Source of the DNA: Gammaproteobacteria bacterium
GTDB taxonomy: Bacteria > Pseudomonadota > Gammaproteobacteria > GCA-002705445 > GCA-002716945
Length of the DNA: 64,000 nucleotides
Assembly: GCA_047611265.1 (NCBI GenBank)
Contig: JBLFWM010000004.1
Span: 4,771-68,770 of the forward strand
Reading direction: 5' to 3'
A model generated the notes under the pieces. It was not told the DNA's origin, ran no database searches, and worked only from the letters and a program-made list of their open reading frames with translations. Below, in pieces: positions 3,005 through 34,577 of this stretch. The stretch's first letter is position 1. The number at the start of each line of letters is the position of its first letter. The translations under genes were made by a program, and so were the position numbers.

Positions 3005-3433
3005 CTATTCTAAAACAACTGTAATTTTTCTATTTAGATCGCAGGTGGCTTGGTCGTATCTCAAAAAGTTCATAAATGCACCCATTGGAGTTATAGAGTC
3101 AACAGCACGATCAAATAAATAGCCTAGTCCAGAAGTAATAAGCATGTTTCCTGTTTCGCTACCATTAGTTTCTTCGATAATGCCATGACTACCATATAAG
3201 TCTCCTGCTTTACAAACAACATTAATTGATGAGCACGCAGTGTTGAATATAATTTTTTTTGGAGACAAGATATCAAGCTTAGAAGAGGATGAATATAAAC
3301 TGCATACCGCATCAATAGGCTTTTTTTCAATATCAAGTGTAACTAAGTTAATATTCAACGAATATTCTTTTGGTTGCAGCGACGCGCAAGAAGTTAATAA
3401 CAGCAAGAAAGAGCATAAGGTTGTTTTTATCAT
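3005..3433 (-). CDS. lipoprotein (hypothetical)
   Basis: Signal peptide with lipobox LLLTSC. 142 aa, no known motif. Confidence 0.4.
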   Translation of the reverse strand: MIKTTLCSFLLLLTSCASLQPKEYSLNINLVTLDIEKKPIDAVCSLYSSSSKLDILSPKKIIFNTACSSINVVCKAGDLYGSHGIIEETNGSETGNMLITSGLGYLFDRAVDSITPMGAFMNFLRYDQATCDLNRKITVVLE

Positions 3434-3450
3434 TATTAACTTTCCCTATA

Positions 3451-4335
3451 CTAACTTACCCTATCTATTACATTATAAATAAATATATTAAACAGATTTT
3501 CAGGATTCCTGAAAGCTGTTGTTTTTATAGTAGCACTGTCTGCTAGTTTTTTGCAATACACTTTAACTTCCTCAGGAGCCTTATATTTCATAATACTTCC
3601 TTTATTTTTCTTGAGGTCTTTTTGTGTTTTTTTACCCATAATACTTTTTTGACCTTCATAATCTAATAGGTCATCTGTTGCCTGAAATATTAAACCAAAA
3701 TTTTTTCCATATTTTCGATACTCCTTTTCTCTTATCAAGGTATTTTTACCAGATAATATTAATGGTGATAGCATGCAGAATTCAAAAAGTTTTGCTGTTT
3801 TCAAATCATGCATCATTATGACTTCTTTTTCAGACACAGTTTTTTTTTCATAAAGCAAGTCTAGCGACTGCCCTCCCGCAAGACCACTTGATCCAGACAT
3901 TTTAGCCAGATTAGTTATCAACCCTAATCTGATTTTAGAATTAATATGGGTTTTAGAATCTGCCAGTAACTCAAAAGCAAGCGTTAAAAGGCTATTCCCT
4001 GCTAGTATTGCAACAGCTTCCCCAAACTTTTTATGCGTAGTTGGTTTACCTCTTCTAAGATCATCGTTATCCATTCCTGGTAGATCATCATGAATTAATG
4101 AATATGCATGCACAAACTCTACAGCAAGCGCTAATCTCATATAATTCGATTTTTTTATTTTTAATAGTTTAGATAATTCTATCACCAAGAAAGGTCTTAC
4201 TCTTTTGCCACCATTAACTACTCCGTAATTCATGGCATCCCATAAAGTAGTCCCATCTTTTTTTGAAAATAAAAACTTTTTTGCGTAATTATTGAAGTCT
4301 GTTGTAGTCTTTTTTAATTGTACTTTTAAGCTCAT
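3451..4335 (-). CDS. ispA: polyprenyl (farnesyl/geranyl) diphosphate synthase
   Basis: First and second aspartate-rich motifs (LIHDDLPGMDNDDLRRG and FQATDDLLDY) typical of trans-isoprenyl diphosphate synthases. Confidence 0.85.
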   Translation of the reverse strand: MSLKVQLKKTTTDFNNYAKKFLFSKKDGTTLWDAMNYGVVNGGKRVRPFLVIELSKLLKIKKSNYMRLALAVEFVHAYSLIHDDLPGMDNDDLRRGKPTTHKKFGEAVAILAGNSLLTLAFELLADSKTHINSKIRLGLITNLAKMSGSSGLAGGQSLDLLYEKKTVSEKEVIMMHDLKTAKLFEFCMLSPLILSGKNTLIREKEYRKYGKNFGLIFQATDDLLDYEGQKSIMGKKTQKDLKKNKGSIMKYKAPEEVKVYCKKLADSATIKTTAFRNPENLFNIFIYNVIDRVS

Positions 4336-4422
4336 ATGTAAATTAGTATTTGTTGATATAACGATATAGATTTTAACACATATTAATTTACTAATTATAA
4401 AAATTTAGGATATGATTGTTTA

Positions 4423-4653
4423 ATGTCGGAAAGAAAACTTATAGATGCAAGAGGGGCTGCATGCCCTGGACCAATGATGGAACTTATAGCAATGTTAAAG
4501 CTCATTGAAATAGGTGATGAAATTGAATTACTATCTAATGATCCTGGTACTGCATCAGATGTGCCAACCTGGTGTCAAAAAGTTGGCCATACATTAATAA
4601 GTAAGACTAAAGAAGAAGACCACTGGGCTTTAGTGGTGAGTCGCGCAAAATAA
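4423..4653 (+). CDS. tusA: TusA-family sulfur carrier protein
   Basis: 76 aa with the CPGP active-site motif (ARGAACPGPMMEL) of TusA/SirA sulfurtransferases. Confidence 0.8.
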   Translation: MSERKLIDARGAACPGPMMELIAMLKLIEIGDEIELLSNDPGTASDVPTWCQKVGHTLISKTKEEDHWALVVSRAK

Positions 4654-4678
4654 AATTAATCTATAGGGGTATAGGGGT

Positions 4679-5818
4679 ATGAAAAGAATATTGGTAATTG
4701 GCGGCGGCATGGCTGGCTCAATTGTAGCAAACGGTCTTGCAAGAAAACTTAATACAGAATTAAATAATGGTACTACTGAAATAACTGTTATATCAGCAAC
4801 AGACAAACATCTTTATCAACCAGGACTATTATATTTAACTTTTGGGCGTGTGACTGAAAGTGAATTAATTAGAGACCAAAGAAGTATACTAGACAAACGT
4901 ATAAAATTTCATGTTGATCCGGCAACTAAAATTGATGCGGATGCTAAAAAAGTTACCACACAATCTGGGAAAACTCATGAATGTGATTATATGGTAATTG
5001 CTACTGGTTCTAGATTAGTTCCAGAAACTGTACCAGGGTTGGCAGAAGGAGCTCATAACTTCTATTCTGTAGAAGGTGCTAAGAAACTTAGAGATACATT
5101 AAAAGCATTTAAAGGTGGGAAAGTGGTCGTGAATGTTAATGCGCCACACAAATGCCCAGTAGCTCCAATAGAAATTACATGTATGTTGCATGATTTCTTA
5201 GGCGAACAAGGAGTTCTAGATAAATCAGAAATTATGTACACATATCCAGTGGGAAGAGTACATGCTATGCAACCAGTAGCAGATTGGGCTGCTCCAGAGT
5301 TTGAAAAGTTAGGTATAAAAAGCGAGACACTCTTTAATACTAAAGAAGTTGATCCAGTCAAAAAAACAATTACATCGGAAGAAGGCGTTACATTAAACTA
5401 TGACCTTCTAATAACTATACCTCCTCATAAAGGACAACAAGTGGTTGAGGATTCAATAGAGGGAGCGGCTGGTGGCTGGGCTCCAACTGATAAGAAAAAA
5501 TTATATCTTGAAGGAAAAACAGATGTATTTATTTGTGGCGATACTACAAATATTCCAATATCAAAAGCTGGATCAACAGCACATTTTGAAGCGGATACAA
5601 TTGTTGATAATATAAGCTCACTAATTAAAGAAGGTACAATGGCTAGAGACTATGACGGTAAAGTGTTTTGCTTCATAGAAACAGGTAAAGAAGAGGGTTC
5701 GTATGTTTGGTTTAATTATACTACACCGCCGGCACCTGGTCTTCCAACCAAAGCTGTTCATAGATTTAAATTAGCGTATAACAAGATGTACTGGTTATCT
5801 GCTAAAGGAATGTTATAG
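4679..5818 (+). CDS. FAD-dependent pyridine nucleotide-disulfide oxidoreductase, sulfide:quinone oxidoreductase-like
   Basis: N-terminal dinucleotide fold VIGGGMAGS. KCPVAP motif resembling the SQR/FCSD conserved Cys region. C-terminal FICGDTT FAD motif. Sits between TusA and a DUF1641 gene. Confidence 0.55.
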   Translation: MKRILVIGGGMAGSIVANGLARKLNTELNNGTTEITVISATDKHLYQPGLLYLTFGRVTESELIRDQRSILDKRIKFHVDPATKIDADAKKVTTQSGKTHECDYMVIATGSRLVPETVPGLAEGAHNFYSVEGAKKLRDTLKAFKGGKVVVNVNAPHKCPVAPIEITCMLHDFLGEQGVLDKSEIMYTYPVGRVHAMQPVADWAAPEFEKLGIKSETLFNTKEVDPVKKTITSEEGVTLNYDLLITIPPHKGQQVVEDSIEGAAGGWAPTDKKKLYLEGKTDVFICGDTTNIPISKAGSTAHFEADTIVDNISSLIKEGTMARDYDGKVFCFIETGKEEGSYVWFNYTTPPAPGLPTKAVHRFKLAYNKMYWLSAKGML

Positions 5819-5827
5819 GGGAACAAT

Positions 5828-6181
5828 ATGGAAAATATGAAAGGGGTATCAGAAATAGAAAGGTTTATGCAAGCAGGTTCTGACGCATTAACAGATAATA
5901 TTACTGAAAGACTAGCAACTACGGCAGCGAATGGGCTAGAAGCTGTTGACAAACTTAATGATCCAGATATTAGAGAAGGTGTAATTAAATTATTAGACTT
6001 AATCGGAAATCTGAATCGTTCTGGAGCAATAGATGAGCTTGGTAAAGTAGCAGAAATGACCGCGAAGCAAGAATGCAAAGGCGGTATTTTTTCTACAATT
6101 TCTATGCTTGGGAAACCAGAAACACAAAGAAGTTTACAATTTTTACTAAATGCTTGCGCTTGCTTACAAAAATGTAAATAA
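5828..6181 (+). CDS. DUF1641-family protein, usual partner of SQR-like / NADH-dehydrogenase-like flavoproteins
   Basis: 117-aa acidic helical protein with a C-terminal Cys cluster. Position directly after the flavoprotein matches the known DUF1641 pairing. Confidence 0.5.
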   Translation: MENMKGVSEIERFMQAGSDALTDNITERLATTAANGLEAVDKLNDPDIREGVIKLLDLIGNLNRSGAIDELGKVAEMTAKQECKGGIFSTISMLGKPETQRSLQFLLNACACLQKCK

Positions 6182-6202
6182 ATAATTTCTTACTGATACT
6201 AA

Positions 6203-6240
6203 TAAACCATATCTTTAATAAGATATGGTTTATTTTTTTG
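6203..6240 (+). terminator. rho-independent terminator after the TusA / SQR-like / DUF1641 unit
   Basis: Perfect 12-bp stem AAACCATATCTT / AAGATATGGTTT with a 5-nt loop, followed by TATTTTTTT. Confidence 0.7.
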
Positions 6241-6311
6241 TCTTATAATCTTATGATTCTCTATGGTTAGATAATTGCTTATCAAGCTAAAGAGCATTAT
6301 ATTAGTTAAAT

Positions 6312-6512
6312 ATGAAAATAACTGTTAATCAAAAATTATTAGTGTTTGATGATAAAATAAGCTTAGAAGGCTTACTAGAAAATCTTGCTGTAACAAAAAA
6401 ATATATGGCAGTAGAAATAAATGGAATAATCATACCAAAATCAGAATACACAAAATATCAACTTAAAGATGGTGATATGGTTGAAGTTATTAATGCCGTG
6501 GGTGGTGGTTAA
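6312..6512 (+). CDS. thiS: thiamine biosynthesis sulfur carrier ThiS
   Basis: 66 aa ending in GGG, ubiquitin-like fold pattern, directly upstream of thiG. Confidence 0.8.
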   Translation: MKITVNQKLLVFDDKISLEGLLENLAVTKKYMAVEINGIIIPKSEYTKYQLKDGDMVEVINAVGGG

Positions 6513-6515
6513 AAA

Positions 6516-7301
6516 TTGAATAAATTTATCATAAATAACCAAACATATAGTTCAAGATTAATAGTTGGAACTGGTAAATATAAAAGTTTTGATGAAACTA
6601 AGCTAGCCATAGAAGCAAGTGGCGCAGAAATGGTTACAGTTGCAATAAGGAGAATGAATCTAGGGCAAAGTAAAGATAGCCCAAACCTTCTAGAATTTAT
6701 AGATCCTAAGAAATATACTATTTTACCCAATACAGCTGGATGTTATAACGCAAAAGACGCAGTACGTACATGTAATATTGCTGCAGAGATATTAAATGGA
6801 GAAAAGCTTGTCAAACTAGAGGTTCTGGGTGATGAAAAAACATTGTATCCAAACTCAATAGAAACACTAAAGGCTGCAGAAATATTGGTCAAAGATGGAT
6901 TCAAGGTAATGGTTTATACAACTGATGACCCTCTTATAGCTAAAGAGTTAGAAAACATTGGCTGTATTTCAGTTATGCCACTAGCTTCACCGATTGGCAG
7001 TGGTCTTGGATTACAAAATAAATATAATATATTGTCAATTGTAGAAAATGCAAATGTCCCGATAATAGTAGATGCAGGCGTAGGAACTGCTTCTGATGCT
7101 AGCATTATTATGGAACTGGGTTGTGATGGAGTTTTAATGAATACTGCAATAGCATGTGCAAAAGATCCAATACTTATGGCTAGTGCAATGAAAAAATCTG
7201 TAGAAGCAGGATACGAAGCATTCAAAGCTGGTAGAATCCCCAAGAAAAGATATGCTAGTGCGTCATCACCGGTTGAGGATAATATTTGCAATGATGAATG
7301 A
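6516..7301 (+). CDS. thiG: thiazole synthase
   Basis: Full-length ThiG-like TIM-barrel sequence (IVGTGKY...[13 protein letters not shown]...[11 protein letters not shown]). Confidence 0.9.
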
Positions 7302-7920
7302 GTTAAAAAAGCCAAAGTTCTACAGTAATCATAGGTATAGACAGGGTCAAAATATAGCACAACCTTCAGAATCTAATGATAATATTAAAGAATTATTATT
7401 GAATAATAAATTAAATATTTTAGACATTGGATTTGGAACTGGGACTTCGACAAAAAATTTATACTCCAACGACAAGAATAACTATTTCTGCATTGAGTCA
7501 TATATGCAGGGAATAAATAATCTAAAAAAGTATGTGAAGCTAAATAAAATAAAAAATATATGCATTTTTTATGGGGACGCAACAAATATCATTAGTGAGA
7601 TATTGCCAGACGAATCTATTGATGAAATATTAATCTTTTTTCCAGATCCATGGCCAAAGACTAAACATCATAAGAGACGGTTAATAAATTCATATACCTT
7701 AAATCTATTTTTTAGCAAACTAAAAAAAGATGGAGTATTACATTTTGCAACTGACCATATAATTTATGCATATAGCGTTAGATATATGCTTGAAAAATTT
7801 ACCGGTCAAAAAATATTATTTAATGCTAATAGAAGAAGAAGACCTATTACAAATTATGAAAAAAGAGGGTTGAGAAGAAAAAATTTTGTATTTGATTTAA
7901 TTGTTAAAAAAAGTAATTAA
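7291..7920 (+). CDS. trmB: tRNA (guanine46-N7)-methyltransferase
   Basis: SAM motif LDIGFGTG and the [15 protein letters not shown] motif. Start taken at the internal ATG at 7291 (MMNEL...), overlapping the thiG stop. Confidence 0.85.
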
Positions 7921-9254
7921 TCAGCTAGTTGTTTTTTAAAAAATAAAATATGGATTAAGAATCCAAAAATAATACCAGTCCAAATGTGAGTTGTGATTCC
8001 TTCATAAATTTCAATAGATAGCATCGGGAATAGCAAGGTACTCCCAAAAGTAATCCACGTAATAACTCCTAGCCTTTTACTTTCAGAATATAATTTACTC
8101 ATTTCTTTGATTCTAATCAAAGGAATAACAGCAAAAATAACAATGATTCCAAGGGTTGCCTGCGGCAAACTGAATAGTAGTGGAGTTGCAAATAGCAATG
8201 TTATGCCTACAACCAGCATTGTCACAATTGATGAAAGGCCGCTATAAGCTCCACTTGCTTCGTTGACTGCTGATCTCGAAAATGAGCCAGAAACTGGAAT
8301 GCTTCCACTAACACTAGAACTAATATTCGCTATACCCTGACCTAGAAGTTCTTGGTTAGAGTCAACCGGAGTTGGGTTTTTATATAGCTCTACTCCGTTT
8401 GAATCCTTGGGAGGTTTTTTAGAATATAGCTGCTTAGCTATAGCTATAGCTTCCATAAAACCAACAAATGCAATAATAAGCGTATGTATTATAAGCATTG
8501 GTATGGATCCATTGAAAATTTTATAATCAGGAATTTTAAAATCTGGCAAACCAGGCGGTATATATCCAACAATTGGCCCAGAATAAGATTGTGCTAATGA
8601 ATAGGATATTGATAAAAGAACTGCAAAAAATACAGCTAAATTACTTAATGTCATAAATTTAGTAAATTTATATTTAATTAAGTACATTAAAAATAAAACT
8701 AATACTGATAAACCCAGTGACTCAATATTAATAGGAGTACTTGCAAGTAGTGCTTCTGGATTAGCTAACTGTCCTAATGATATTTTAGGCATTCCAAAAA
8801 TCTTGCTTAACTGAGACGCAGATATGATTAATGCTGCAGCTGATGTAAATCCTAATAATACATGCTCTGGGATTGTATCAAAAACTTTTCCAGCTTTTAA
8901 GAGGGCTAAGGTAATCTGAAATATGCCGACCGTGAATGCCAGAATAATAGCATAAAATATATATAATGAACTATCACCTGCAGACAAAGATGTTACCGCA
9001 ACTGATGTCAAAAGACATACCATTGCAACAGGTCCTGTAGCAAGATATCTAGATGATCCAAAAAGAGCTGCAATGCCAACTGGTATTAGGGCAGCATATA
9101 ATCCATAAACTGGAGATACATCTGCTAATGCTGCATATGCCATTGACTGAGGAATGATAATCATAGCTATTGTTGTGCCAGCAATAACATCTCTTAAAAT
9201 ATAATTTCTAGTGGATAATGATTCAGGTAACCATGTGCTGAAATTAAATAACAT
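7917..9254 (-). CDS. SulP-family inorganic anion transporter core, apparently without a STAS domain
   Basis: Polytopic membrane protein. N-terminal segment ILRDVIAGTTIAMIIIPQSMAYAALA matches the SulP signature. 445 aa is too short for a C-terminal STAS. Confidence 0.65.
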   Translation of the reverse strand: MLFNFSTWLPESLSTRNYILRDVIAGTTIAMIIIPQSMAYAALADVSPVYGLYAALIPVGIAALFGSSRYLATGPVAMVCLLTSVAVTSLSAGDSSLYIFYAIILAFTVGIFQITLALLKAGKVFDTIPEHVLLGFTSAAALIISASQLSKIFGMPKISLGQLANPEALLASTPINIESLGLSVLVLFLMYLIKYKFTKFMTLSNLAVFFAVLLSISYSLAQSYSGPIVGYIPPGLPDFKIPDYKIFNGSIPMLIIHTLIIAFVGFMEAIAIAKQLYSKKPPKDSNGVELYKNPTPVDSNQELLGQGIANISSSVSGSIPVSGSFSRSAVNEASGAYSGLSSIVTMLVVGITLLFATPLLFSLPQATLGIIVIFAVIPLIRIKEMSKLYSESKRLGVITWITFGSTLLFPMLSIEIYEGITTHIWTGIIFGFLIHILFFKKQLAD

Positions 9255-9363
9255 ATTTTTGATATTAATAATGCAATCCTCTGTTCTATATTTCGGCGAA
9301 ATATATGTTTCAAATAAACTGATTTATATTATCATATTAATTAGATACTGTCTTGAGGGGAAT

Positions 9364-10392
9364 ATGGAGTATAGAAAACTAGGCAACACAAATCTTAATG
9401 TAAGTCTTATCTGTCTTGGGACGATGAGTTTTGGTGAACAAAATACTGAAAAAGATGCTCATGAGCAATTAGCATATGCCATAGATCACGGTGTAAACTT
9501 TATAGATACAGCGGAAATGTATGCAATTCCCCCAAAAGAAGAGACTCAAGGTTTAACAGAAAAGTATATAGGCTCTTGGGTTAAGAAAAATTTAAATAGA
9601 GATAAATATATAATTGCCACAAAAGTTGCTGGGCCTGGAATGGAATATATTAGAAATGGTACAAATTTAAGTAAAGAGCATGTCACTAAAGCAATAGAAA
9701 CATCTTTAAAAAGATTGAACACTGACTATATAGATCTTTACCAGGTTCACTGGCCAGAAAGAAAATCAAATTATTTTGGCAGACTAGGTTATACACAATC
9801 TGAAGATATTGGTATTTCTATTGAAGAAACATTATCTGCCCTAGAAGATGCTGTTAAAGCAGGAAAAATAAGACATATTGGTGTTTCAAACGAAACTCCA
9901 TGGGGAGTTCATGAATACATAAGATTATCAGAAACAAAGTCATTACCAAAAATTCAAACTATTCAGAACCCATATAGTCTTTTAAATAGGACTTATGAAA
10001 TAGGTTTGGCTGAAATGTCCTACCGTGAAAATATTGGTTTACTAGCCTATTCTCCACTTGGATTTGGAGTGTTAACTGGAAAATATTTAAATAACATGCC
10101 GAATAAATCAAGGCTAGGGTTATTTGGTGAATGGTTTACTAGGTACAGTAACCAAAAATGTCATGATGCAACATCTAAATATTTTGCTGTTGCTAAAAAA
10201 TATAATATTAGTTTGTGCCAAATGGCATTGGCATTTGTGAATACAAGACCTTTTATTACTAGTAATATTATTGGTGCTACAACAATAGAACAACTAAAAG
10301 AAAATATTGAAAGTGTAAACATAAATTTAAGTGATGAAATTATTGAAGAGATAAATAGTATTCATGAAGATATCCCCAACCCAGCGCCTTAA
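9364..10392 (+). CDS. NADP(H)-dependent aldo/keto reductase (Tas-like)
   Basis: MEYRKLGNTNLNVSLICLGTMSFG start and IDTAEMY motifs typical of AKRs. The upstream part of the ORF (9211-9363) is a hydrophobic read-through overlapping the convergent gene and is not counted. Confidence 0.8.
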   Translation: MEYRKLGNTNLNVSLICLGTMSFGEQNTEKDAHEQLAYAIDHGVNFIDTAEMYAIPPKEETQGLTEKYIGSWVKKNLNRDKYIIATKVAGPGMEYIRNGTNLSKEHVTKAIETSLKRLNTDYIDLYQVHWPERKSNYFGRLGYTQSEDIGISIEETLSALEDAVKAGKIRHIGVSNETPWGVHEYIRLSETKSLPKIQTIQNPYSLLNRTYEIGLAEMSYRENIGLLAYSPLGFGVLTGKYLNNMPNKSRLGLFGEWFTRYSNQKCHDATSKYFAVAKKYNISLCQMALAFVNTRPFITSNIIGATTIEQLKENIESVNINLSDEIIEEINSIHEDIPNPAP

Positions 10393-10406
10393 AAATAAAT
10401 TCTAAT

Positions 10407-10865
10407 TTAGCTCTGACTTTTATTCAGGAAATCACTAATCTCTCTCATGTTTGGCATTATAGATATATACTGATCAGCTTCCTCTTTACATTCATCATAT
10501 ATTTTAAATATAGCCTCAGCACTAACGTTAAATAGATTTGCGATTAACCCTATCGCATTAGTCCTATTATCACCATAAGATTCTTTCCAACGAACACATA
10601 CAACTAAAATAAGATTAAAGTATTCATCTTTTTTCTCAAAAGTTACAGAAGAAAGGTCAAGGCTATTCTCTTTCAAGTAAACATTAATATATTCTTGTAA
10701 TTGGATTGGGAGTACTTTTTTTTCATGATTATAATGAGAGTACATTGCTACTAACTCTTTATGTTCGTCTGGTCCAACAGTGCCACATAATATTCTGTCA
10801 AGTTCTTGGGTATAGTATTCCCATAAACCATTATCTAACCAAGTTATATTTTTTATAGTTGCCAT
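10407..10865 (-). CDS. hypothetical protein, last gene of the glyQS-gmhB unit
   Basis: 152-aa ORF with a short gap to gmhB. No recognisable motif. Confidence 0.35.
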   Translation of the reverse strand: MATIKNITWLDNGLWEYYTQELDRILCGTVGPDEHKELVAMYSHYNHEKKVLPIQLQEYINVYLKENSLDLSSVTFEKKDEYFNLILVVCVRWKESYGDNRTNAIGLIANLFNVSAEAIFKIYDECKEEADQYISIMPNMREISDFLNKSQS

Positions 10866-10871
10866 CTAGAT

Positions 10872-11423
10872 TTAATTATTCGCATCCTGTTTAATCACAT
10901 AGTCTACAGCATCGTTCAGATCATTAAACATTGGTATGTTATATTTAGAATTATTTTCAATATTTTTGCCATTCCCAGTTCTAAGACCAAGAGGTTTACA
11001 CTTAGATGCAAGCGATGCATCTATATCTCTTGGTGAATCACCAATGGAAAAACATTTATCCAAAGAAATATTTAATCTTCCAGCTATTTCACTAAACATC
11101 CCAGTTCCTGGTTTTCTATTCACGCATTCATCTGTTGGTAAGCTTGGGCAGTAAAGGACTGCTAAAATAGATCCTCCAATTCTGCTTATTTGACTGAGCA
11201 TCTTAAGATTAATCTCAATAAAATCATTGTATGATATGATGCCTCTACCTAAACCAGACTGGTTGCTGATGATAATAATCTGGTATTCATGCTCTGTTAA
11301 TTTTTTAATTGCATTTAAGCTCTCAGGTATCAAATTCCACTCATCTGCAGATTTTATATAATGAGGAGAGTCAATATTTATAACACCATCCCTATCAAGA
11401 ATTATATATTTTTGATTATTCAC
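10872..11423 (-). CDS. gmhB: D-glycero-D-manno-heptose 1,7-bisphosphate phosphatase (HAD family)
   Basis: HAD motif [10 protein letters not shown]. The SNQSG motif and overall length are typical of GmhB. The conserved location after the glycyl-tRNA synthetase gene matches Pseudomonas-type synteny. Confidence 0.8.
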
Positions 11424-12781
11424 TTTAGAAAAAAATCTTTAAAATAATTTGAGACACCCTCTAGAGGTATCTTTTCTTGCAGCATAGTATCTCTGTTTCT
11501 AATAGTAACCACACCTGTCTCTAAAGTATCAAAATCAATAGTAATACATAAAGGTGTTCCAATCTCATCATGCTTTCTATAATTTTTGCCAATATTCCCA
11601 GTATTTTCAACTACTACTCTGCCAATTCGTAAAGATTGAAGAGTATTTTTAAGTTTAAATGCAGCGTCCACTAATTCATTATTATTTTTCTTTAATGGAA
11701 TTACTGCCGCTTTAATGGGAGCTAAATGTGAGGCAAAAGAAAGCACAATTCTTTCCTTGCCACCATCAAGTTTTTCAACACGGTATGCTTCATTAAGAAT
11801 TGCTAGCACGCCTCTCTCTACTCCTGCAGATGGTTCTATAACATAAGGTACAAAAAATTTATTTGTTTCAATATCTTGGACAGCAAGTTTTGCATTTGAT
11901 GCATTATTAGTTTCTGTCTTAGACGACAGGTTAAGTTCACTTTGATTTTTACTATGTGATCCTAAGTCAAAATCAGTTCTATTGGCAATGCCCTCTAGCT
12001 CTTCTAATCCATGAGGGAATTGATACATTAAATCTACTGTTGCTTTTGAATAGTGGGCTAAATCATCCACCGGTACATTAAGTATTTCTAATTTATCCTT
12101 AGGTATGCCTTGTTCAGTCCACCAACTAATTCTATTATTAACCCATTCCTTATGCCATTTATCATCTGACCCAGGCTTCACAAAATACTCTAGCTCCATT
12201 TGCTCAAATTCTCTGACTCTAAAAATAAAGTTTCGCGGAGTTATTTCATTTCTAAAAGCTTTACCAATTTGCGCTATCCCAAAAGGCAAAGATCTTCCGG
12301 TTGAATCAAGAACATTTTTAAAGTTAGTAAATATCTGCTGCGCCGTCTCAGGCCTTAAGTATGCAAAATTGCTTCCATCTTCTATTGGCCCTACATTTGT
12401 CTTAAACATTAAATTAAATGGTCTTGGCTCTGTTAAATCTGAAGAGTTACAACTCGGGCATTTATTATTTTCTATGCTATCCACTTTCCATCTTGATTTA
12501 CAAGTTTTGCAGTCAACCATTGGATCAGTAAATGTATTTTCATGCCCAGAGTGTTTAAGAACATCAGGATGCGTTAAAATAGAAGCATCTAAACCTTCCA
12601 CATCATCCCGGTCATATATCATAGAACTCCACCATGCATGCTTAAGGTTATTTTTTAATTCAACACCTAGCGGACCATAATCATAAAGACCCTGGAATCC
12701 ACCATATATTTCATTTGATTGAAAAATAAAACCTCTTCTTTTACAAAGAGCAACTAAGTCATCCATTGTGTGAGCAGTCAA
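11420..12781 (-). CDS. glyQS: glycine--tRNA ligase, homodimeric alpha2 type
   Basis: Very strong match to alpha2 GlyRS. N-terminus [37 protein letters not shown]. Class II motifs [10 protein letters not shown] and [32 protein letters not shown]-terminal anticodon-binding domain present. Confidence 0.9.
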
Positions 12782-19331: not shown

Positions 19332-20522
19332 ATGAATATTGCTATGAAAAATCTAAAACATTACCTGCTAACCCTATTTTTACTGTCTCAATTAAGTGTC
19401 ACAACAACTACTATTAAAGCTGATGAAACTGTGCCAGCACAGAATATAGCTCAATTCGTAGATGTATTTAAACGAATAAAAGAGCAATACGTAGAGGAAA
19501 TAGATGATGAGAAGCTCTTTAAGGCAGCTATTAAAGGCATGGTTTCAGGACTTGACCCGCATTCAGCCTTTCTTACAAATGATGACTTCAATGAGTTGAA
19601 AATTGGAACAACAGGAAAGTTTGGTGGCCTTGGTATTGAAATAACTACTGAAGATGGCTATGTAAAAGTAATAACTCCAATAGATGATACTCCTGCAGAA
19701 AGAGCTGGGATTTTAGCTGGTGACTTAATTGTTAAGGTTGGAGATGAATCTGTTAAAAACATGGAAATTGGTGATGCAGTAAAACTAATGAGAGGTGAGC
19801 CTGGGACAAAAATCCAAATTACTGTTCTAAGAAAAAAAGTAGATGAACCTTTAATATTTGATATCACACGACAAATAATTGTATCTAAGGGAATTAAATT
19901 TAAAGTTTTTGATAATATTGGCTATGTTAGACTTGCAAGCTTTCAATCAAATTCAACAAATGACCTAAAAAGTGCAATATATAAATTAAAAAAATTAAGT
20001 CCAACACCAATAGATGGTCTTATACTGGATTTACGTAATAACCCAGGCGGGGTACTAGGTGCTGCTGTAGGGATTACCGATCTATTTTTGCAAGAAGGAA
20101 AAATAGTTTATACAAATGGAAGGACAATGAATTCTAAGCTTGAATACTTTGCTACTCCTCAGGACATATTAAATGGTTTACCCTTGGTTATTATGATTAA
20201 TGGGGGTTCTGCATCTGCTTCAGAAATTGTGGCAGGCGCTCTTCAAGATAATAAAAGAGCAACAATAGTTGGGAATAAGTCCTACGGCAAAGCTTCTGTT
20301 CAAACTATTCAAGAATTATCAGATGGCTCTGCTCTTAAATTAACTACGGCTCGCTACTATACTCCTTTAGGTAGAGATATTCATACATTAGGAATAACTC
20401 CAGACATTATTGTTGAATATGAAAAAGATAAATTAGTTGAATTACCTGACCCATATAATGCAGATAACCAGTTATTTGAAACTATTAAAATAGCTACAGG
20501 GATGAAAGCTGTTTCTCAATAA
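19332..20522 (+). CDS. ctpA: carboxy-terminal processing protease (S41 family)
   Basis: Signal peptide, PDZ domain, S41 catalytic region (NGGSASASEIVAGAL... K). Confidence 0.85.
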   Translation: MNIAMKNLKHYLLTLFLLSQLSVTTTTIKADETVPAQNIAQFVDVFKRIKEQYVEEIDDEKLFKAAIKGMVSGLDPHSAFLTNDDFNELKIGTTGKFGGLGIEITTEDGYVKVITPIDDTPAERAGILAGDLIVKVGDESVKNMEIGDAVKLMRGEPGTKIQITVLRKKVDEPLIFDITRQIIVSKGIKFKVFDNIGYVRLASFQSNSTNDLKSAIYKLKKLSPTPIDGLILDLRNNPGGVLGAAVGITDLFLQEGKIVYTNGRTMNSKLEYFATPQDILNGLPLVIMINGGSASASEIVAGALQDNKRATIVGNKSYGKASVQTIQELSDGSALKLTTARYYTPLGRDIHTLGITPDIIVEYEKDKLVELPDPYNADNQLFETIKIATGMKAVSQ

Positions 20523-30341: not shown

Positions 30342-30644
30342 TTACTTGTAATGTTTTCTTCTTTCAGAAAACAGTTTAACTCTTTTTCTCCAATGTTTAT
30401 AAGAATTATTTGTAATATTATTTTTCATTATTTTCTTAACGCTATCTTCACTAAGACCATATTGTAGATTAATAGCTTTAAAACTAACATCATCAGAAAG
30501 AGCCATCTGAATGATTTCACTAATATCAGTTTGCGTTAACTCTTTGTTCATTCTACTGTTACTGATTTGTTTTGTTTTAAGGAACTTCCTGCCACTCTTA
30601 ATATCATACCCTAATGACTTTTTATTCTCATCATGATAAATCAT
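30342..30644 (-). CDS. TIGR03643/DUF2805-family protein
   Basis: Segment ISEIIQMALSDDVSFKAINLQYGLSEDSVKKIMKNN...HWRKRV resembles the TIGR03643 conserved core. Confidence 0.45.
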   Translation of the reverse strand: MIYHDENKKSLGYDIKSGRKFLKTKQISNSRMNKELTQTDISEIIQMALSDDVSFKAINLQYGLSEDSVKKIMKNNITNNSYKHWRKRVKLFSERRKHYK

Positions 30645-30673
30645 TTAATCTTCGGTTTTTGTCGTAACAGTAA

Positions 30674-32455
30674 TTATTTTGATGACTCTTTCTGAAGATT
30701 CCACATCTGAAAATATAACCCTTTTGTACTGAGAAGATAATCGTGATCACCGCTTTCAATAATTTTACCATTATCTAAAACATAAATATTATATGCGTCT
30801 TTAATAGTTGAAAGTCTATGAGCAATAACTAAAGATGTAATATTTTTTGAAATTGTATTCATTGAATTTAAAATTTTACTTTCTGATTTTGAATCTAAGC
30901 TTGAGGTGGCTTCATCAAATAATATTATTTTAGGTTTTTTTAGCACTGCTCTTGCGATAGCAATTCTTTGTTTTTCTCCACCAGATAATTTTAATCCCCT
31001 TTCACCAACTATAGTATCGTACTTCTCTGGAAGACTGTCTATAAAGTGATGAACATTTGCTAAAGTTGCAGCTTTTATTACATCTTCTTTACTTGAAGTG
31101 TGATCAGCATATTGTATATTGAAAAAAATACTTTCGTTAAATAGAACTGTATCTTGAGGTACCACGGCTATATTTTTATGAAGGCTATATTGTGAGCAAT
31201 TAACAATATTTTGATCATCTATTGAAATAATACCTTCATTAGAATTATAAAATCTAAATAGAAGCCTTCCTATAGTAGATTTTCCTGCTCCTGAAGGACC
31301 AACAATTGCAATTTTTTTACCAGCAGGTATGTCTAGAGAAATATTTTTCAAAATACTTCTATTTTTGTTATAGGAAAAAGAAACATTCTTAAATTTTATA
31401 CTGCCAGACTTTACAACTAGATCCTGGGCATATTTTTTATCAACAATTTCAATATTTTTATCCAATAACTTTAATAACATATTCATATCTGCTAATGCAT
31501 ATATAATTTGCCTATAAACTATACCTAAAGTATTTAAAGGTACAAAAAGTTGTAGCATTAATGCATTCACAAGAACTAAGTCGCCTAAAGTCATTGATCC
31601 ATCTACAACCCCAGATGATGCAAAAATCATTATAAAGGTTACGCCAATGGTAATAATTATAGCTTGACCAAAATTTAGTAGTGACATGGTCGTCATACTT
31701 TGCATTGCTGCCTTCTCCCACTTAAACAAAACATCACCGTATCTTTTAATTTCATATTGCTCATTATTAAAATACTTAACAGTTTCATAATTTAATAAAC
31801 TGTCGACAGCAATAGAACTTGCTTCAGAATCAAGACGGTTCATATCGTGTCTAAAATTCATTCTCCAATTAGTTACCTTTAGAGTAAATAATATATAAAT
31901 AATAATTGTTAAAAATATTATTAATGTAAAATTAATATCATAAGTTGTAAGTAAAATAGCTCCGACAAGAAAAACCTCAACAACTGTTGGTAAAATAATA
32001 AACATCATGTAGTTAATTAGAGATGATAAGCTTTGAGTTCCTCTTTCAAGATCTCTAATAATTGATCCAGTTTGTTTTTCTAAATGAAATCGCAAAGACA
32101 TTTTATGAAGATGGTCTAAAACTTTTACTGATATTTTATAAACAGCATGGTATCTAACCTTTGCAAATAGAACATCTCTAAGTTCATTAAAAAAAGCCGT
32201 AGTGAGTCTTAGTGAGCCATATGCAATTAGAAGCCCAAGAGGTAAAATTAATAAAGTTTTTTCACTATTAAGAGAATCTACTATCTCTTTTAATAAAATT
32301 GGAACTGCAACAGTTGCTAATTTTGCAATTATTAAAAATAATAAAGCAAATATTACTCTTGATTTAAAATCCCATATGTATGGAAACATTTTTAAGATAT
32401 TACCTAAATCTGTTCTATCTTTTTCAGGTATCTCTGTTCTTGAAGTAAAAAGCAT
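30674..32455 (-). CDS. ABC transporter, fused permease/ATPase (ABCB/Atm1-type exporter)
   Basis: Six-TM N-terminal domain plus NBD with Walker A GPSGAGKST, signature LSGGEKQRIAIARA, Walker B ILFDEATSSLD. Confidence 0.85.
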   Translation of the reverse strand: MLFTSRTEIPEKDRTDLGNILKMFPYIWDFKSRVIFALLFLIIAKLATVAVPILLKEIVDSLNSEKTLLILPLGLLIAYGSLRLTTAFFNELRDVLFAKVRYHAVYKISVKVLDHLHKMSLRFHLEKQTGSIIRDLERGTQSLSSLINYMMFIILPTVVEVFLVGAILLTTYDINFTLIIFLTIIIYILFTLKVTNWRMNFRHDMNRLDSEASSIAVDSLLNYETVKYFNNEQYEIKRYGDVLFKWEKAAMQSMTTMSLLNFGQAIIITIGVTFIMIFASSGVVDGSMTLGDLVLVNALMLQLFVPLNTLGIVYRQIIYALADMNMLLKLLDKNIEIVDKKYAQDLVVKSGSIKFKNVSFSYNKNRSILKNISLDIPAGKKIAIVGPSGAGKSTIGRLLFRFYNSNEGIISIDDQNIVNCSQYSLHKNIAVVPQDTVLFNESIFFNIQYADHTSSKEDVIKAATLANVHHFIDSLPEKYDTIVGERGLKLSGGEKQRIAIARAVLKKPKIILFDEATSSLDSKSESKILNSMNTISKNITSLVIAHRLSTIKDAYNIYVLDNGKIIESGDHDYLLSTKGLYFQMWNLQKESSK

Positions 32456-32549
32456 ATTATTAAATCATTAAAGTATTAAAAAATTATTATAATTCAGCAG
32501 GGGTATTTTAGATACAGCTACTTTAATGGGGTATTAGACCAGATAGAAT

Positions 32550-32591
32550 ATACCCATCCTGCCAAAAGGGACTACTCCACTGTGACTGAAT
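32550..32591 (+). repeat. direct repeat copy 1 of the glmS 3'-terminal codons plus flanking sequence (att-like)
   Basis: ATACCCATCCTGCCAAAAGGGACTACTCCACTGTGACTGAAT. The reverse complement encodes ...SVTVE-stop, like the true glmS C-terminus. Confidence 0.7.
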
Positions 32592-32793
32592 GTTTTTGGA
32601 TGGACATGATGGTCATCGGCATCAACATATTGTGTTTCCTTAGTTTTTTGAGTTTTCTTCTTTCGTACATATCCAGTCCTATGTTGACCTTGATTTTAAC
32701 ATAATTCATTGATTTAAATTAATTACAAAATAAAATGAATCATGTTAAAATCACGATTCATTTTGAAAATAATTCTTTAAGTAAGATTAATAT

Positions 32794-33732
32794 ATGAAAA
32801 CAATCAACCATAATATTAAATTGTTATATAAATTCAACTTATCTGATAAAGATAGTCTTAAAATTTTTAATGAATCAACTAGAGATGTAACTAATTTAAA
32901 TGTATTAAAGTGTATCAAGTCTGATGTTATAGTCCTTGAAAGGTTAGTATTACCTGAGGATTATTATGAAAAAAATATTCACTACACTGATAAGTTTAAA
33001 GGAAGCACTGTAACAACTAAAGATGTTATTGAATCCAAACCACTTGAAGATGATGTTAGAAGGTTTGAATTACACAAAGAATTGATTAAAGGATCTGAGA
33101 TATTAGACTTTGGATGTGGGCGAGGTGGTTTTATTCAACTATCAAAGAACATTTCAAAAAGATCTGTAGGTTTGGAACTTAATAAAATAAATAGAGAATA
33201 TATAAATAATAGTGGTGTTCAATGTGTAAATACATTATCAGAATTAAATGATGATAAATTTGATCTAATAACATTAAATCATGTATTTGAACATTTAAAT
33301 GACCCAATTAATATTCTGATTGAATTGCAAAAATATCTAAAGGATGATGGGATTATTATTATTGAAGTTCCACATGCTAGAGATTTATTGTTAGAAACAT
33401 TCAATCTCGAATCTTTTAAAAACTTCACATTATGGAGTGAACATTTAATATTACATACTAAAAAGTCACTAGAAATATTTGCTACGAATAGTGGGTTACA
33501 CATGAAAAGCATGAGGGGTTTCCAAAGATATCCAATTTCGAATCATTATAATTGGTTATTAAATGGTCAACCATCTGGTCATGAAATTTTTGATACTCTA
33601 AATAATGATGATTTTCATAGTCATTATGAAAAATTACTTGATAGTATTGATCAAACTGATACTTTAATAGGTTACTTTGAAAAAAACTTAAATATTAAAA
33701 TACCCTGCCCAAACAAAACTACTCCACTGTGA
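32794..33732 (+). CDS. class I SAM-dependent methyltransferase (cargo of islet A)
   Basis: Motif I ILDFGCGRGG. Post-I acidic residue and Methyltransf_23-like organisation. Its last 10 codons are supplied by repeat copy 2. Confidence 0.7.
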   Translation: MKTINHNIKLLYKFNLSDKDSLKIFNESTRDVTNLNVLKCIKSDVIVLERLVLPEDYYEKNIHYTDKFKGSTVTTKDVIESKPLEDDVRRFELHKELIKGSEILDFGCGRGGFIQLSKNISKRSVGLELNKINREYINNSGVQCVNTLSELNDDKFDLITLNHVFEHLNDPINILIELQKYLKDDGIIIIEVPHARDLLLETFNLESFKNFTLWSEHLILHTKKSLEIFATNSGLHMKSMRGFQRYPISNHYNWLLNGQPSGHEIFDTLNNDDFHSHYEKLLDSIDQTDTLIGYFEKNLNIKIPCPNKTTPL

Positions 33733-33738
33733 TGGAAT
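33700..33738 (+). repeat. direct repeat copy 2 of the glmS 3'-end mimic
   Basis: ATACCCTGCCCAAACAAAACTACTCCACTGTGATGGAAT. The reverse complement encodes ...ITVE-stop. Confidence 0.7.
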
Positions 33739-33761
33739 TGGTATTGGAGGTGATAGTGTAA

Positions 33762-34169
33762 TTATTCATTTTTCTCAATAAAACTGCACTTAAAGTGAAA
33801 TGTTGTAGTCTGACCACTTTGATGGTTTAATACCATTTTTCTTGCCGGTTGAACAAAATCAACAAATGACCTCGATTTTATAACCGCACTACTACTACTT
33901 TTAGCAACTTTAGGGAGACTTACACAAGTCCCACCAAGTTTACTTGTTTCAATTTCTCGGATGTTTTCATCGTTGCTTGTACACCAATCAACCCATTTTA
34001 TTTCTTTCCGTACTTCAATTTTTTTGAATAAACCAAACAAATTCTCTGAGTATTTATAGACATGTATATTATTTTTTTTATCAGTTTGTTGGCATTTTAT
34101 TATTATATCCTCAGCAAACACCTGCGAAGAAAATAAGAGTAAACAAATTGTGAGTAGTTTGGTTTTCAT
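33762..34169 (-). CDS. secreted hypothetical protein (cargo of islet B)
   Basis: Signal peptide MKTKLLTICLLLFSSQVFA. 135 aa, several Cys, no known motif. Confidence 0.4.
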   Translation of the reverse strand: MKTKLLTICLLLFSSQVFAEDIIIKCQQTDKKNNIHVYKYSENLFGLFKKIEVRKEIKWVDWCTSNDENIREIETSKLGGTCVSLPKVAKSSSSAVIKSRSFVDFVQPARKMVLNHQSGQTTTFHFKCSFIEKNE

Positions 34170-34201
34170 ATTCTCTTTATAGCAATTTTTTTTACTTTTG
34201 A

Positions 34202-34555
34202 CTAACTGTAATTGATATAAATGATTCTCATGTCCTTTAATGTGAATTCATATTTCCTTTTTCGGACATCTCTTATCCTTGTATCCCTTTCTTTCTTTCT
34301 TTTGAGTACAGAATGGACACTAGAGTTTGTAAACTTCTTGCCCCTTTCGGATTTGATTCCAGAACGATTCAAGAATGTAGATATCTTCCGATAACCCATT
34401 TCTCTTTTTTCATACAAGTACTGGATAAGAATATAAATGATATTCTGTCTGACTGAATATTCTTGAAGATATATTAAGTCATTAGATTGGATGATTGTTG
34501 TGAAACACAAGTGTGGTATAGAACCTGATAGGACATACCCACCCTGTCCAACCAA
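34202..34555 (-). pseudogene. truncated large-serine-recombinase-like fragment (recombinase-domain remnant)
   Basis: GYRKISTFLNRSGIKSERGKKFTNSSVHSVLKRKK resembles the recombinase domain (G.s...IA..LN..GI.T..G..W....V..IL.N) of large serine recombinases. No catalytic N-terminal domain. TTG start inside repeat copy 3. Abuts the glmS stop. Confidence 0.35.
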
Positions 34556-34577
34556 AACTACTCCACCGTGACTGATT
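34535..34577 (+). repeat. direct repeat copy 3: the authentic glmS 3' end plus downstream sequence
   Basis: ATACCCACCCTGTCCAACCAAAACTACTCCACCGTGACTGATT. Contains the real glmS stop (reverse complement ...KSVTVE-stop). Confidence 0.7.

Follow-up and report, generated by a model that had tools for sequence, protein, structure and literature searches.

Direct copies of the glmS tail in an uncultured marine gammaproteobacterium as probable attachment-site junctions of small integrative elements that encode a large serine recombinase

In the 64,000-nucleotide stretch of gammaproteobacterial DNA analyzed here (contig JBLFWM010000004.1 of assembly GCA_047611265.1; hereafter the window), the last codons of glmS occur at the end of this gene and recur, as direct repeats, among the genes that follow it; the question raised by this locus is which process copies the end of a gene into its own downstream region. 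An earlier note, made from the letters of the sequence alone, had attributed the repeats to site-specific elements inserted at the glmS 3' end. Based on the comparison of the repeats with empty and alternative alleles, with intact and circular elements, with the architecture of their attachment (att) sites and with recombinase remnants in the window, the repeats are very probably the att-site junctions of small (approximately 4–9 kb) integrative elements of uncultured marine Gammaproteobacteria that encode a large serine recombinase (LSR). All coordinates are positions in the window, the array being read on the minus strand; L-numbers designate the contigs or loci compared and P-numbers the predicted proteins.

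The glmS tail is present in four direct copies, all on the minus strand (copies 3, 2, 1 and 0, ending at 34575, 33736, 32589 and 30565, respectively; see Table 1). The repeated core corresponds to the last five sense codons of glmS and its stop codon; copies 3, 2 and 1 encode KSVTVE-stop, ITVE-stop and SVTVE-stop, respectively, the similarity of copies 1 and 3 persists for approximately 63 bp beyond the core start, and the final 11 or so codons of a methyltransferase gene (…KIPCPNKTTPL-stop) are formed by the opposite strand of copy 2, all in agreement with the earlier note. A search with the 18-mer at up to three mismatches returned exactly three sites (copies 3, 2 and 1; 0.03 expected from shuffled sequences). 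The family consensus core, TCAGTMACRGTRGARTRR, gave three window matches at up to one mismatch (copies 0, 1 and 3; none in 100 shuffles), with copy 2 differing from it by two mismatches, and a looser degenerate pattern found only the same four sites in 64 kb, all on one strand. The fourth copy had been missed in the earlier note, which counted three copies and two islets: the array extends from 30548 to 34575, encloses an ABC exporter gene and consists of at least three att-bounded modules. Copy 0 is presumably the oldest scar in the window.

Alleles of the locus were compared on the 11 contigs that encode exactly the same GlmS protein, seven of which share the window layout. In L008, glmS is directly joined to the copy-1 sequence, followed by the ABC exporter gene, and exactly the 1,986 bp present in the window between 34575 and 32589 are absent. 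In L009 and L010, other sequence directly follows the core, and the stop codons are TGA and TAA instead of TAG. Further inserts occur in L099, L100 and L101, whose glmS tails show 100% protein identity to that of the window; the L101 insert is a complete Type I restriction-modification system whose ends correspond to those of the window insert (left end, including the small open reading frame (ORF) described below, 96.7%; right end 95.6% over 229 bp), the cargo being different. An empty site is also found in L011, a relative with 95% GlmS identity. The empty and alternative alleles thus characterize the site as a strain-variable, nucleotide-precise insertion point inside the glmS tail. They contradict the assumption that the same four repeats and modules are a fixed, non-mobile structure, a possibility raised in the earlier note (alleles differ among L008–L011 and L099–L101), and they bear out its proposal that elements integrate into the glmS 3' end and regenerate it, since the empty allele and the alternative inserts adjoin the same nucleotide positions. 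Even the "empty" site is not pristine: right-arm-like (P') sequence and the first small-ORF codons follow copy 1, and the site therefore carries an older scar itself. The glmS stop codon (window 34558–34560; L008, L009, L010, L100, L101) is TAG, TGA or TAA depending on the attached element arm, with the same GlmS protein encoded in each case.

Intact elements were located via the genomic contexts of homologues of the 117-aa ORF that follows glmS in the window (the small ORF). L098 exhibits the order glmS tail with core, small ORF, about a dozen ORFs without assignment (including a weak replication-initiator match), 198-aa resolvase, 599-aa LSR and left arm with a second core, the latter 8.2 kb from the first. 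The L106 sequence (8,273 bp) corresponds exactly to the L092 scaffold element in circularly permuted form, and the attachment site of the element (attP) is intact. The intact elements measure 4–9 kb and contain an LSR gene, a small resolvase gene and a replication-initiator-like gene; in each intact element examined, the resolvase gene (product approximately 195 aa) neighbors the LSR gene. Scanning metagenomes with the alignment of small ORFs added 80 loci. Among the 95 small-ORF copies, 35 are positioned directly after glmS and 17 directly after an LSR gene, whereas the remainder are located at internal junctions or after other sequence (24) or too near a contig end (19); the recombinase at the LSR-linked junctions was of the serine type in 17 out of 17 cases. 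A metagenome-assembled genome of Candidatus Thioglobus (L180, JAOMCR010000003.1) carries a 40%-identical LSR on the glmS tail, convergent with glmS, the two overlapping by 18 bp; another arm with its core is located at a distance of 8.7 kb. Accordingly, the chromosomal site (attB) is represented by L008 and L011, the junctions attL and attR by the window, L098, L101 and L180, and the attP circle by L106; the comparison with relatives proposed in the earlier note turned up both empty sites (L008, L011) and intact elements with an LSR (L098, L180).

Two of these loci exhibit further features. The L180 element (approximately 3059–11743, 8.7 kb, opposite orientation) also encodes a family-B DNA polymerase (936 aa), a short tyrosine-recombinase ORF and a replication-initiator-like gene, and a third core is located at 1006 of this contig. 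L142 (4,102 bp) begins in the LSR (residues 205–596) and ends in the LSR (residues 1–98), with only attP, small ORF, replication-initiator-like gene and resolvase in between, which suggests a minimal circular element of approximately 4.4 kb.

In the LSR, Pfam recognizes the Resolvase and Recombinase domains, to which relatives add the PF13408 zinc ribbon, and the catalytic motif RVST is present. A profile of the family matched the A118 integrase (4KIS, 8e-18), TP901-1 (3BVP, 6e-14) and also the phiC31 integrase in the PDB; a PDB search with the single sequence returned no match, so that the profile search alone succeeded. The closest phage and plasmid LSRs show at most approximately 25–30% identity, and a scan of the IMG/VR viral contigs with the LSRs gave no match. 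The interior of the elements obtained almost no annotation from PHROGs, the weak replication-initiator match being the sole assignment. No intact recombinase is present within the window array, which retains two LSR 3'-end remnants: the one adjoining copy 1 covers the last 38 or so LSR residues and shows 95.6% identity with the right-hand end of the Type I restriction-modification module in L101, and the one adjoining copy 0 is now read as the N-terminal extension of a DUF2805 gene. Together with the LSR at the att site of intact relatives, these remnants strengthen the suspicion of the earlier note that the element was serine-recombinase based. Its statement that the recombinase is largely deleted is correct as well; what is left, however, lies at 32590–32689 and 30566–30650 and not in the ORF regarded there as a truncated recombinase. 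The DUF2805 gene itself (30342–30650, minus strand) has a chimeric N-terminus, its first 35 or so codons consisting of the LSR 3' remnant and the glmS-tail core in the +1 frame (…GYDIKSGRKFLKTKQISNSRM…); in the relatives L012 and L017 the protein occurs in a short form of 71–74 aa.

The intact elements also bear on a replacement-type flexible genomic island, in which modules would be swapped by homologous recombination with site-specific integration as a rare seeding event. Conserved ends of 100–480 bp flank the variable cargo, some junctions are without a proper arm, and shared 5' and 3' ends of several cassette genes (see below) could anchor homology. This explanation is nevertheless improbable: the junctions are precise at the 18-bp core, stop codon and arm switch together, and circular attP forms as well as intact LSR-encoding elements are abundant.

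The architecture of attP further argues for site-specific integration by the LSR. Two inverted arms of 18 bp surround a 22-bp center that mimics the last glmS codons and the stop codon, giving a total length of approximately 58 bp. At the LSR-linked (attP) junctions, an 18-nt stretch that stops 4 nt short of the core and the 18 nt directly after the core are complementary in inverted orientation at 15–18 of 18 positions. The arms vary between variants yet covary (mean of 16.8 matches within own pairs, 12.85 in cross pairs); in other LSR lineages the arm sequences are unrelated but still form inverted repeats (L139, 18/18; L142 and L152, 16/18). Compared with shuffled sequences, single-strand folding of attP reached z = −7.3 and −10.1, whereas copies 1, 2 and 3 of the window fold near zero (z = −0.3, +0.9 and −0.4, respectively), which accords with hybrid junctions. 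The right arm at copy 3, taken as its reverse complement, agrees with the copy-1 left arm at 15 of 18 positions, and copy 2 combines a left arm of the type "CACTATCACCTCCAATAC", found also in L099, L122 and L124, with a right arm that is not complementary to it. That the small resolvase-type serine recombinase (approximately 195 aa) rather than the LSR integrates at the palindromic site is very unlikely, although each intact element examined encodes one. Small enzymes of the resolvase or invertase type recombine res or hix sites within a single molecule, and no integration by them is known; moreover, att site and 3' end of the LSR gene physically overlap in each lineage, and arm sequences covary with LSR lineage.

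The symmetry axis of the site runs between core positions 7 and 8 (TCAGTC-AC-AGT). In the attR core of L101, position 6 is T and thus not attB-like, and attL has the TGA stop of the element; the window attL core has G at position 9. Taken together, these differences would bracket the exchange to positions 7–8, and the crossover is predicted at or near these positions (AC of GTC-AC-AGT), i.e. at the center of symmetry.

The strong hairpins formed by intact sites, which are of attC-like size, and the role of glmS as the classical Tn7 target call for a comparison with integron-like single-strand folding by a tyrosine recombinase and with a Tn7-like transposon at attTn7. With integrons the glmS arrays share mostly single-gene, co-oriented cassettes between imperfect palindromes and frequent defence cargo; with Tn7 they share the use of the glmS 3' end as a safe harbour. 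The probability of either mechanism is practically negligible. No IntI or Tns genes occur in or beside the array, where all ORFs are accounted for, and serine recombinases are encoded at all 17 LSR-linked junctions. An integron was rejected since the array, with glmU/glmS upstream and cargo downstream, contains no tyrosine recombinase and no attI, and the cores lack the GTTRRRY box (an IntI profile was not run over the remainder of the 64 kb), the crossover being placed at the center of the palindrome instead. Tn7 inserts approximately 25 bp downstream of the glmS stop codon with a 5-bp duplication and never copies glmS codons. Here, the junction falls within the final glmS codons, with duplication of the 18-bp core and exchange of the stop codon, and neither TnsA, TnsB, TnsC or TnsD among the ORFs between glmS and the ABC exporter nor TnsB-type end repeats at the window array were found; a Tn7-like transposon and the Tn7 mode of insertion were therefore rejected, as the earlier note had anticipated.

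The small ORF directly behind glmS had been regarded in the earlier note as a decayed, truncated recombinase-like fragment. It has 39 homologues with 57–96% identity, nearly all of approximately 119 aa. Among 25 ungapped sequences of the family, third codon positions vary most, and dN/dS amounts to 0.15 (codons 8–52) and 0.10 (codons 53–117), while codons 1–7, which coincide with the arm, show no codon-position bias. By BLASTP, the ORF matched the start of the LSR recombinase domain (L092 residues 184–256) with 28% identity and E = 0.003 (single comparison). The AF2 model is helical over residues 30–100; a PDB fold search with this model gave weak helix-turn-helix and LSR matches, all with E > 0.4. 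Judged from these comparisons, the 117-aa ORF is a conserved coding family under purifying selection and related to the LSR DNA-binding domain, rather than a product of decay.

In the LSR lineage of the window, the small ORF forms the C-terminal part of the LSR frame in the episomal form: at 11 attP junctions this frame is stop-free through left arm, core and right arm into the small ORF, and read-through LSR proteins of 737–739 aa were called by gene callers (P0040, P0041, P0042, P0044). In the Thioglobus-type lineage the LSR also reads through attP, via the antisense of the core, with P0052 (699 aa) as the unsplit form; in integrated L180 the LSR ends with …NSFNSY-stop at glmS, and the C-terminal domain is located at the far end of the element. 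The read-through across attP implies that integration detaches the C-terminal domain from the recombinase and splits the LSR gene. Read-through in every lineage was rejected as a generalization, since LSR and small ORF are separate genes in different frames in L098-like lineages. A constant translational coupling of the small ORF to glmS was likewise rejected: a TGA stop is overlapped by the ATG or GTG of the small ORF in only 8 of 27 distinct attL junctions, the others having TAG or TAA without an overlapping start. The small-ORF copies of L121, L122 and L124 contain an in-frame stop in the N-terminal half (before MGYRKIS) with the C-terminal half intact, and two distant homologues were called as 62–63 aa starting at the Met of MGYRKIS; this short form may be the functional unit in the integrated state.

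According to the mechanism that we infer, recombination of attP with the chromosomal glmS tail, presumably catalyzed by the LSR at or near the symmetry center, would insert the element, rebuild glmS from the element arm and leave a second glmS-tail copy at the far end. Repeated integration at the glmS-proximal site would push older elements outward, and recombinase and replication genes would be lost or replaced by cargo, resulting in short att-bounded modules; the window contains three of them, namely module A (small ORF and secreted protein), module B (methyltransferase and LSR 3' remnant) and module C (ABC exporter and second LSR 3' remnant).

Several points weigh against this explanation. 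The case rests wholly on the comparison of natural sequences, with no recombination seen directly. Canonical LSRs recombine attP with attB only, and tandem arrays require the glmS-proximal attL as a renewed target, as is the case with elements of the staphylococcal cassette chromosome (SCC) type. Some junctions of relatives are without a right arm (L012 at 11810, L013 at 6285), and deletion or homologous exchange must therefore also shape the arrays. The small resolvase, too, is present in every intact element. As for the crossover, the bracket joins single-nucleotide polymorphisms (SNPs) of two different modules, which could have arisen by later mutation, and position 9 is A in L099, whose arm is almost the same; a mapping from the single A/G SNP of the window is weak for this reason and was kept only within the two-module bracket.

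A scan of species-representative genomes with GlmS identified relatives among uncultured marine Gammaproteobacteria (68–95% identity). Downstream of glmS, L012, L013, L017 and L018 contain 2–4 co-oriented glmS-tail cores with unrelated cargo, and the metagenome contigs L122, L124, L149 and L160 contain 5–7 cores; the modules of such arrays are mostly co-oriented and single-gene. The cargo of relatives and metagenome contigs consists largely of defence genes, including restriction-modification: a Type II system and a type IV HNH enzyme in L013, a PDC-S02 nuclease in L012 and L122, a NOV_C/PD-T4-1-like protein in L017, an HNH endonuclease in L018 and an SRA-HNH enzyme in L124. In the window, the cargo search advocated by the earlier note was successful for the methyltransferase (Methyltransf_23), but for the 135-aa protein no Pfam, PHROG or PADLOC family was matched. 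Relative L012 has no ABC exporter gene downstream of glmS, and a gene for a 148-aa protein that L012 and L018 share is found neither in the window nor in L011; the gene content at the locus thus varies beyond the obvious cassettes.

With regard to these arrays it is plausible, if short of probable, that the modules without an LSR gene in the window are live non-autonomous cassettes that are moved in trans by the LSRs of autonomous elements, the locus being an integron-like platform. The inserts of the window and L101 share their ends (96.7% and 95.6%) and differ in cargo, module A recurs in L099 before different modules, and the co-oriented single-gene modules accumulate to arrays of 5–7 cores. 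However, no circle of an LSR-less module was found, the internal junctions are attP-like or hybrid and not canonical LSR substrates, several modules have lost an arm, and homologous recombination between shared ends gives the same pattern.

The features of the locus are compiled in Table 1.

Table 1. Features of the glmS-tail array and its surroundings in the window.
Feature	Position	Strand	Remarks
glmS, 608 aa	34558..36384	(-)	Integration target; Pfam SIS and GATase domains; identical protein on 11 contigs
Copy 3, attL core TCAGTCACGGTGGAGTAG	34558..34575	(-)	Joined to glmS (true gene end)
Right (P') arm TTTTGGTTGGACAGGGTG	34540..34557	(-)	Same arm type in attP contigs L108 and L109
Small ORF, 117 aa	34202..34555	(-)	Pfam PF07508, E=1e-4; like the N-terminal helix-turn-helix part of the LSR recombinase domain
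135-aa predicted secreted protein, cargo	33762..34169	(-)	Signal peptide MKTKLLTICLLLF
Copy 2, internal hybrid junction	33701..33758	(-)	Left arm 33741-33758, core 33719-33736 TCCATCACAGTGGAGTAG, right arm 33701-33718
Class I S-adenosylmethionine (SAM)-dependent methyltransferase, cargo	32794..33732	(+)	Pfam Methyltransf_23, E=4e-19
LSR 3'-end remnant, including left (P) arm 32594-32611	32590..32689	(-)	tblastn match to L092 LSR residues 584-621, 60% identity
Copy 1, attR-type core TCAGTCACAGTGGAGTAG	32572..32589	(-)	Identical to empty-site attB core
Older scar: right-arm-like sequence and small-ORF 5'-end remnant	32526..32571	(-)	Also in "empty" alleles L008 and L011
ABC exporter, 593 aa	30674..32455	(-)	Pfam; between copy 1 and copy 0
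Second LSR 3'-end remnant (…GYDIKSGRKFLKTKQ)	30566..30650	(-)	tblastn match to L092 LSR residues 549-574, 65% identity, E=2e-4
Copy 0, fourth glmS-tail core TCAGTAACAGTAGAATGA	30548..30565	(-)	Fits consensus TCAGTMACRGTRGARTRR

Some further observations concern individual features of the table. The signal peptide MKTKLLTICLLLF… of the 135-aa protein opens many cassette genes with unrelated mature proteins (besides the window, in L122, L124, L125, L126 and L099), and several cassette genes finish in a conserved NNYTITSxTNSVTVE-stop that runs through a second left-arm type and the core in the glmS frame; these shared signal peptides and tails suggest a family of cassettes for secreted proteins, the ends of which are conserved. 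The region that separates the LSR remnant from the start of the methyltransferase gene contains a 20-bp inverted repeat (32691–32753; 95% complementary, 23-nt loop), which could be a terminator or an operator. In L001, which is otherwise 99.8% identical to the window, the ABC exporter gene contains approximately 100 extra bases and a short duplication (12312–12411, compared with about 31740–31794 of the window) and is called as two ORFs; either an assembly artefact or a disrupted allele may account for this. An explanation at the RNA level was rejected, as Rfam shows nothing near the repeats and reports only a borderline match to Rickettsia sRNA47 (20178–20318, minus strand; score 60.2 versus a gathering threshold of 60), antisense inside a gene that we take, from its translation and not confirmed by Pfam, to encode a C-terminal-processing-peptidase-like protein; this match is most likely spurious.

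Among known systems, SCC elements such as SCCmec, which are integrated by CcrAB or CcrC at the 3' end of rlmH/orfX, are the closest functional analogue: an LSR integrates into the last codons of a housekeeping gene that is regenerated, short direct repeats mark the ends, and tandem or composite arrays including recombinase-less pseudo-elements carry adaptive cargo. An SCC element proper was rejected, however, since host phylum and target (glmS, not rlmH) are different, as is the LSR lineage (at most approximately 25–30% identity to phage and plasmid LSRs; Ccr proteins were not specifically compared). Moreover, the glmS elements have one LSR and a small resolvase in place of CcrA and CcrB, an attP inside or at the 3' end of the LSR frame, a size of only 4–9 kb and a replication-initiator-like gene.

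Ecologically, tycheposons and additive flexible islands are closest. They reside in streamlined marine hosts, where successive integrations push older elements outward, and the resulting arrays combine cargo with pieces of integrase genes and partial repeats of the target; an LSR is used by a minority of the tycheposons (bioRxiv 10.1101/2020.12.28.424599; PMC10872708). The glmS arrays resemble them in these respects, but a tRNA-type island or a tycheposon as defined for Prochlorococcus was rejected: tycheposons use tRNA genes and mostly tyrosine recombinases, whereas the window contains no tRNA, integration is into the glmS tail, and the recombinases seen at junctions were all of the serine type.

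With the phage serine integrases (A118/LI, TP901-1, phiC31, Bxb1), the glmS LSRs share catalytic, recombinase, zinc-ribbon and coiled-coil domains and short dyad att sites. What sets them apart is an additional helix-turn-helix domain resembling the recombinase domain, which follows attP as a fusion across it or as the product of a separate small gene, together with long, near-perfect arms (18 bp); no directionality factor was identified. In the integration-dependent immunity of mycobacteriophages, which involves a tyrosine recombinase, attP is located within an element gene whose product is altered on integration. Archaeal fuselloviruses of the SSV1 type have attP inside the integrase gene, which is partitioned by integration; this enzyme is also a tyrosine recombinase (PMC8371274). 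As in these systems, attP in an element gene entails that integration splits the gene and changes its product. In contrast to SSV1, where the integrase is disrupted, the catalytic and DNA-binding core of the glmS LSR stays intact and only the C-terminal domain of approximately 115 aa is detached. Literature searches for glmS in combination with serine recombinase returned no description of such elements; new here are the LSR lineage, the protein-gene target glmS and the attP inside the recombinase reading frame, while the kind of element itself is known.

For the abundant, uncultured, genome-streamlined marine Gammaproteobacteria in question, the relatives of which include Candidatus Thioglobus, the analysis identifies the probable agent and the site of a strain-variable islet; the routes of gene gain in such streamlined organisms are poorly known. 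An attP of approximately 58 bp, a conserved attB in an essential gene and diverse, naturally orthogonal pairs of LSR and arms are useful for genome engineering. The recombinase frame that is cut by its own integration leads to a concrete, testable hypothesis of directionality control. We tentatively consider, as a joint interpretation that is rather doubtful at present, that the gene splitting is a built-in switch of directionality or immunity and that the glmS tail is a serine-recombinase-driven, integron-like platform for defence cassettes in these abundant streamlined bacteria. If so, the LSR of the circular form would carry, or be made alongside, a C-terminal domain that resembles the recombinase domain of the LSR itself, and integration would remove this domain; in the orientation of the window type, the detached domain would be expressed alone from the glmS transcript. 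Since the cargo of the relatives is dominated by restriction-modification and other defence genes, the glmS locus is a candidate hotspot of phage-defence turnover in the ocean.

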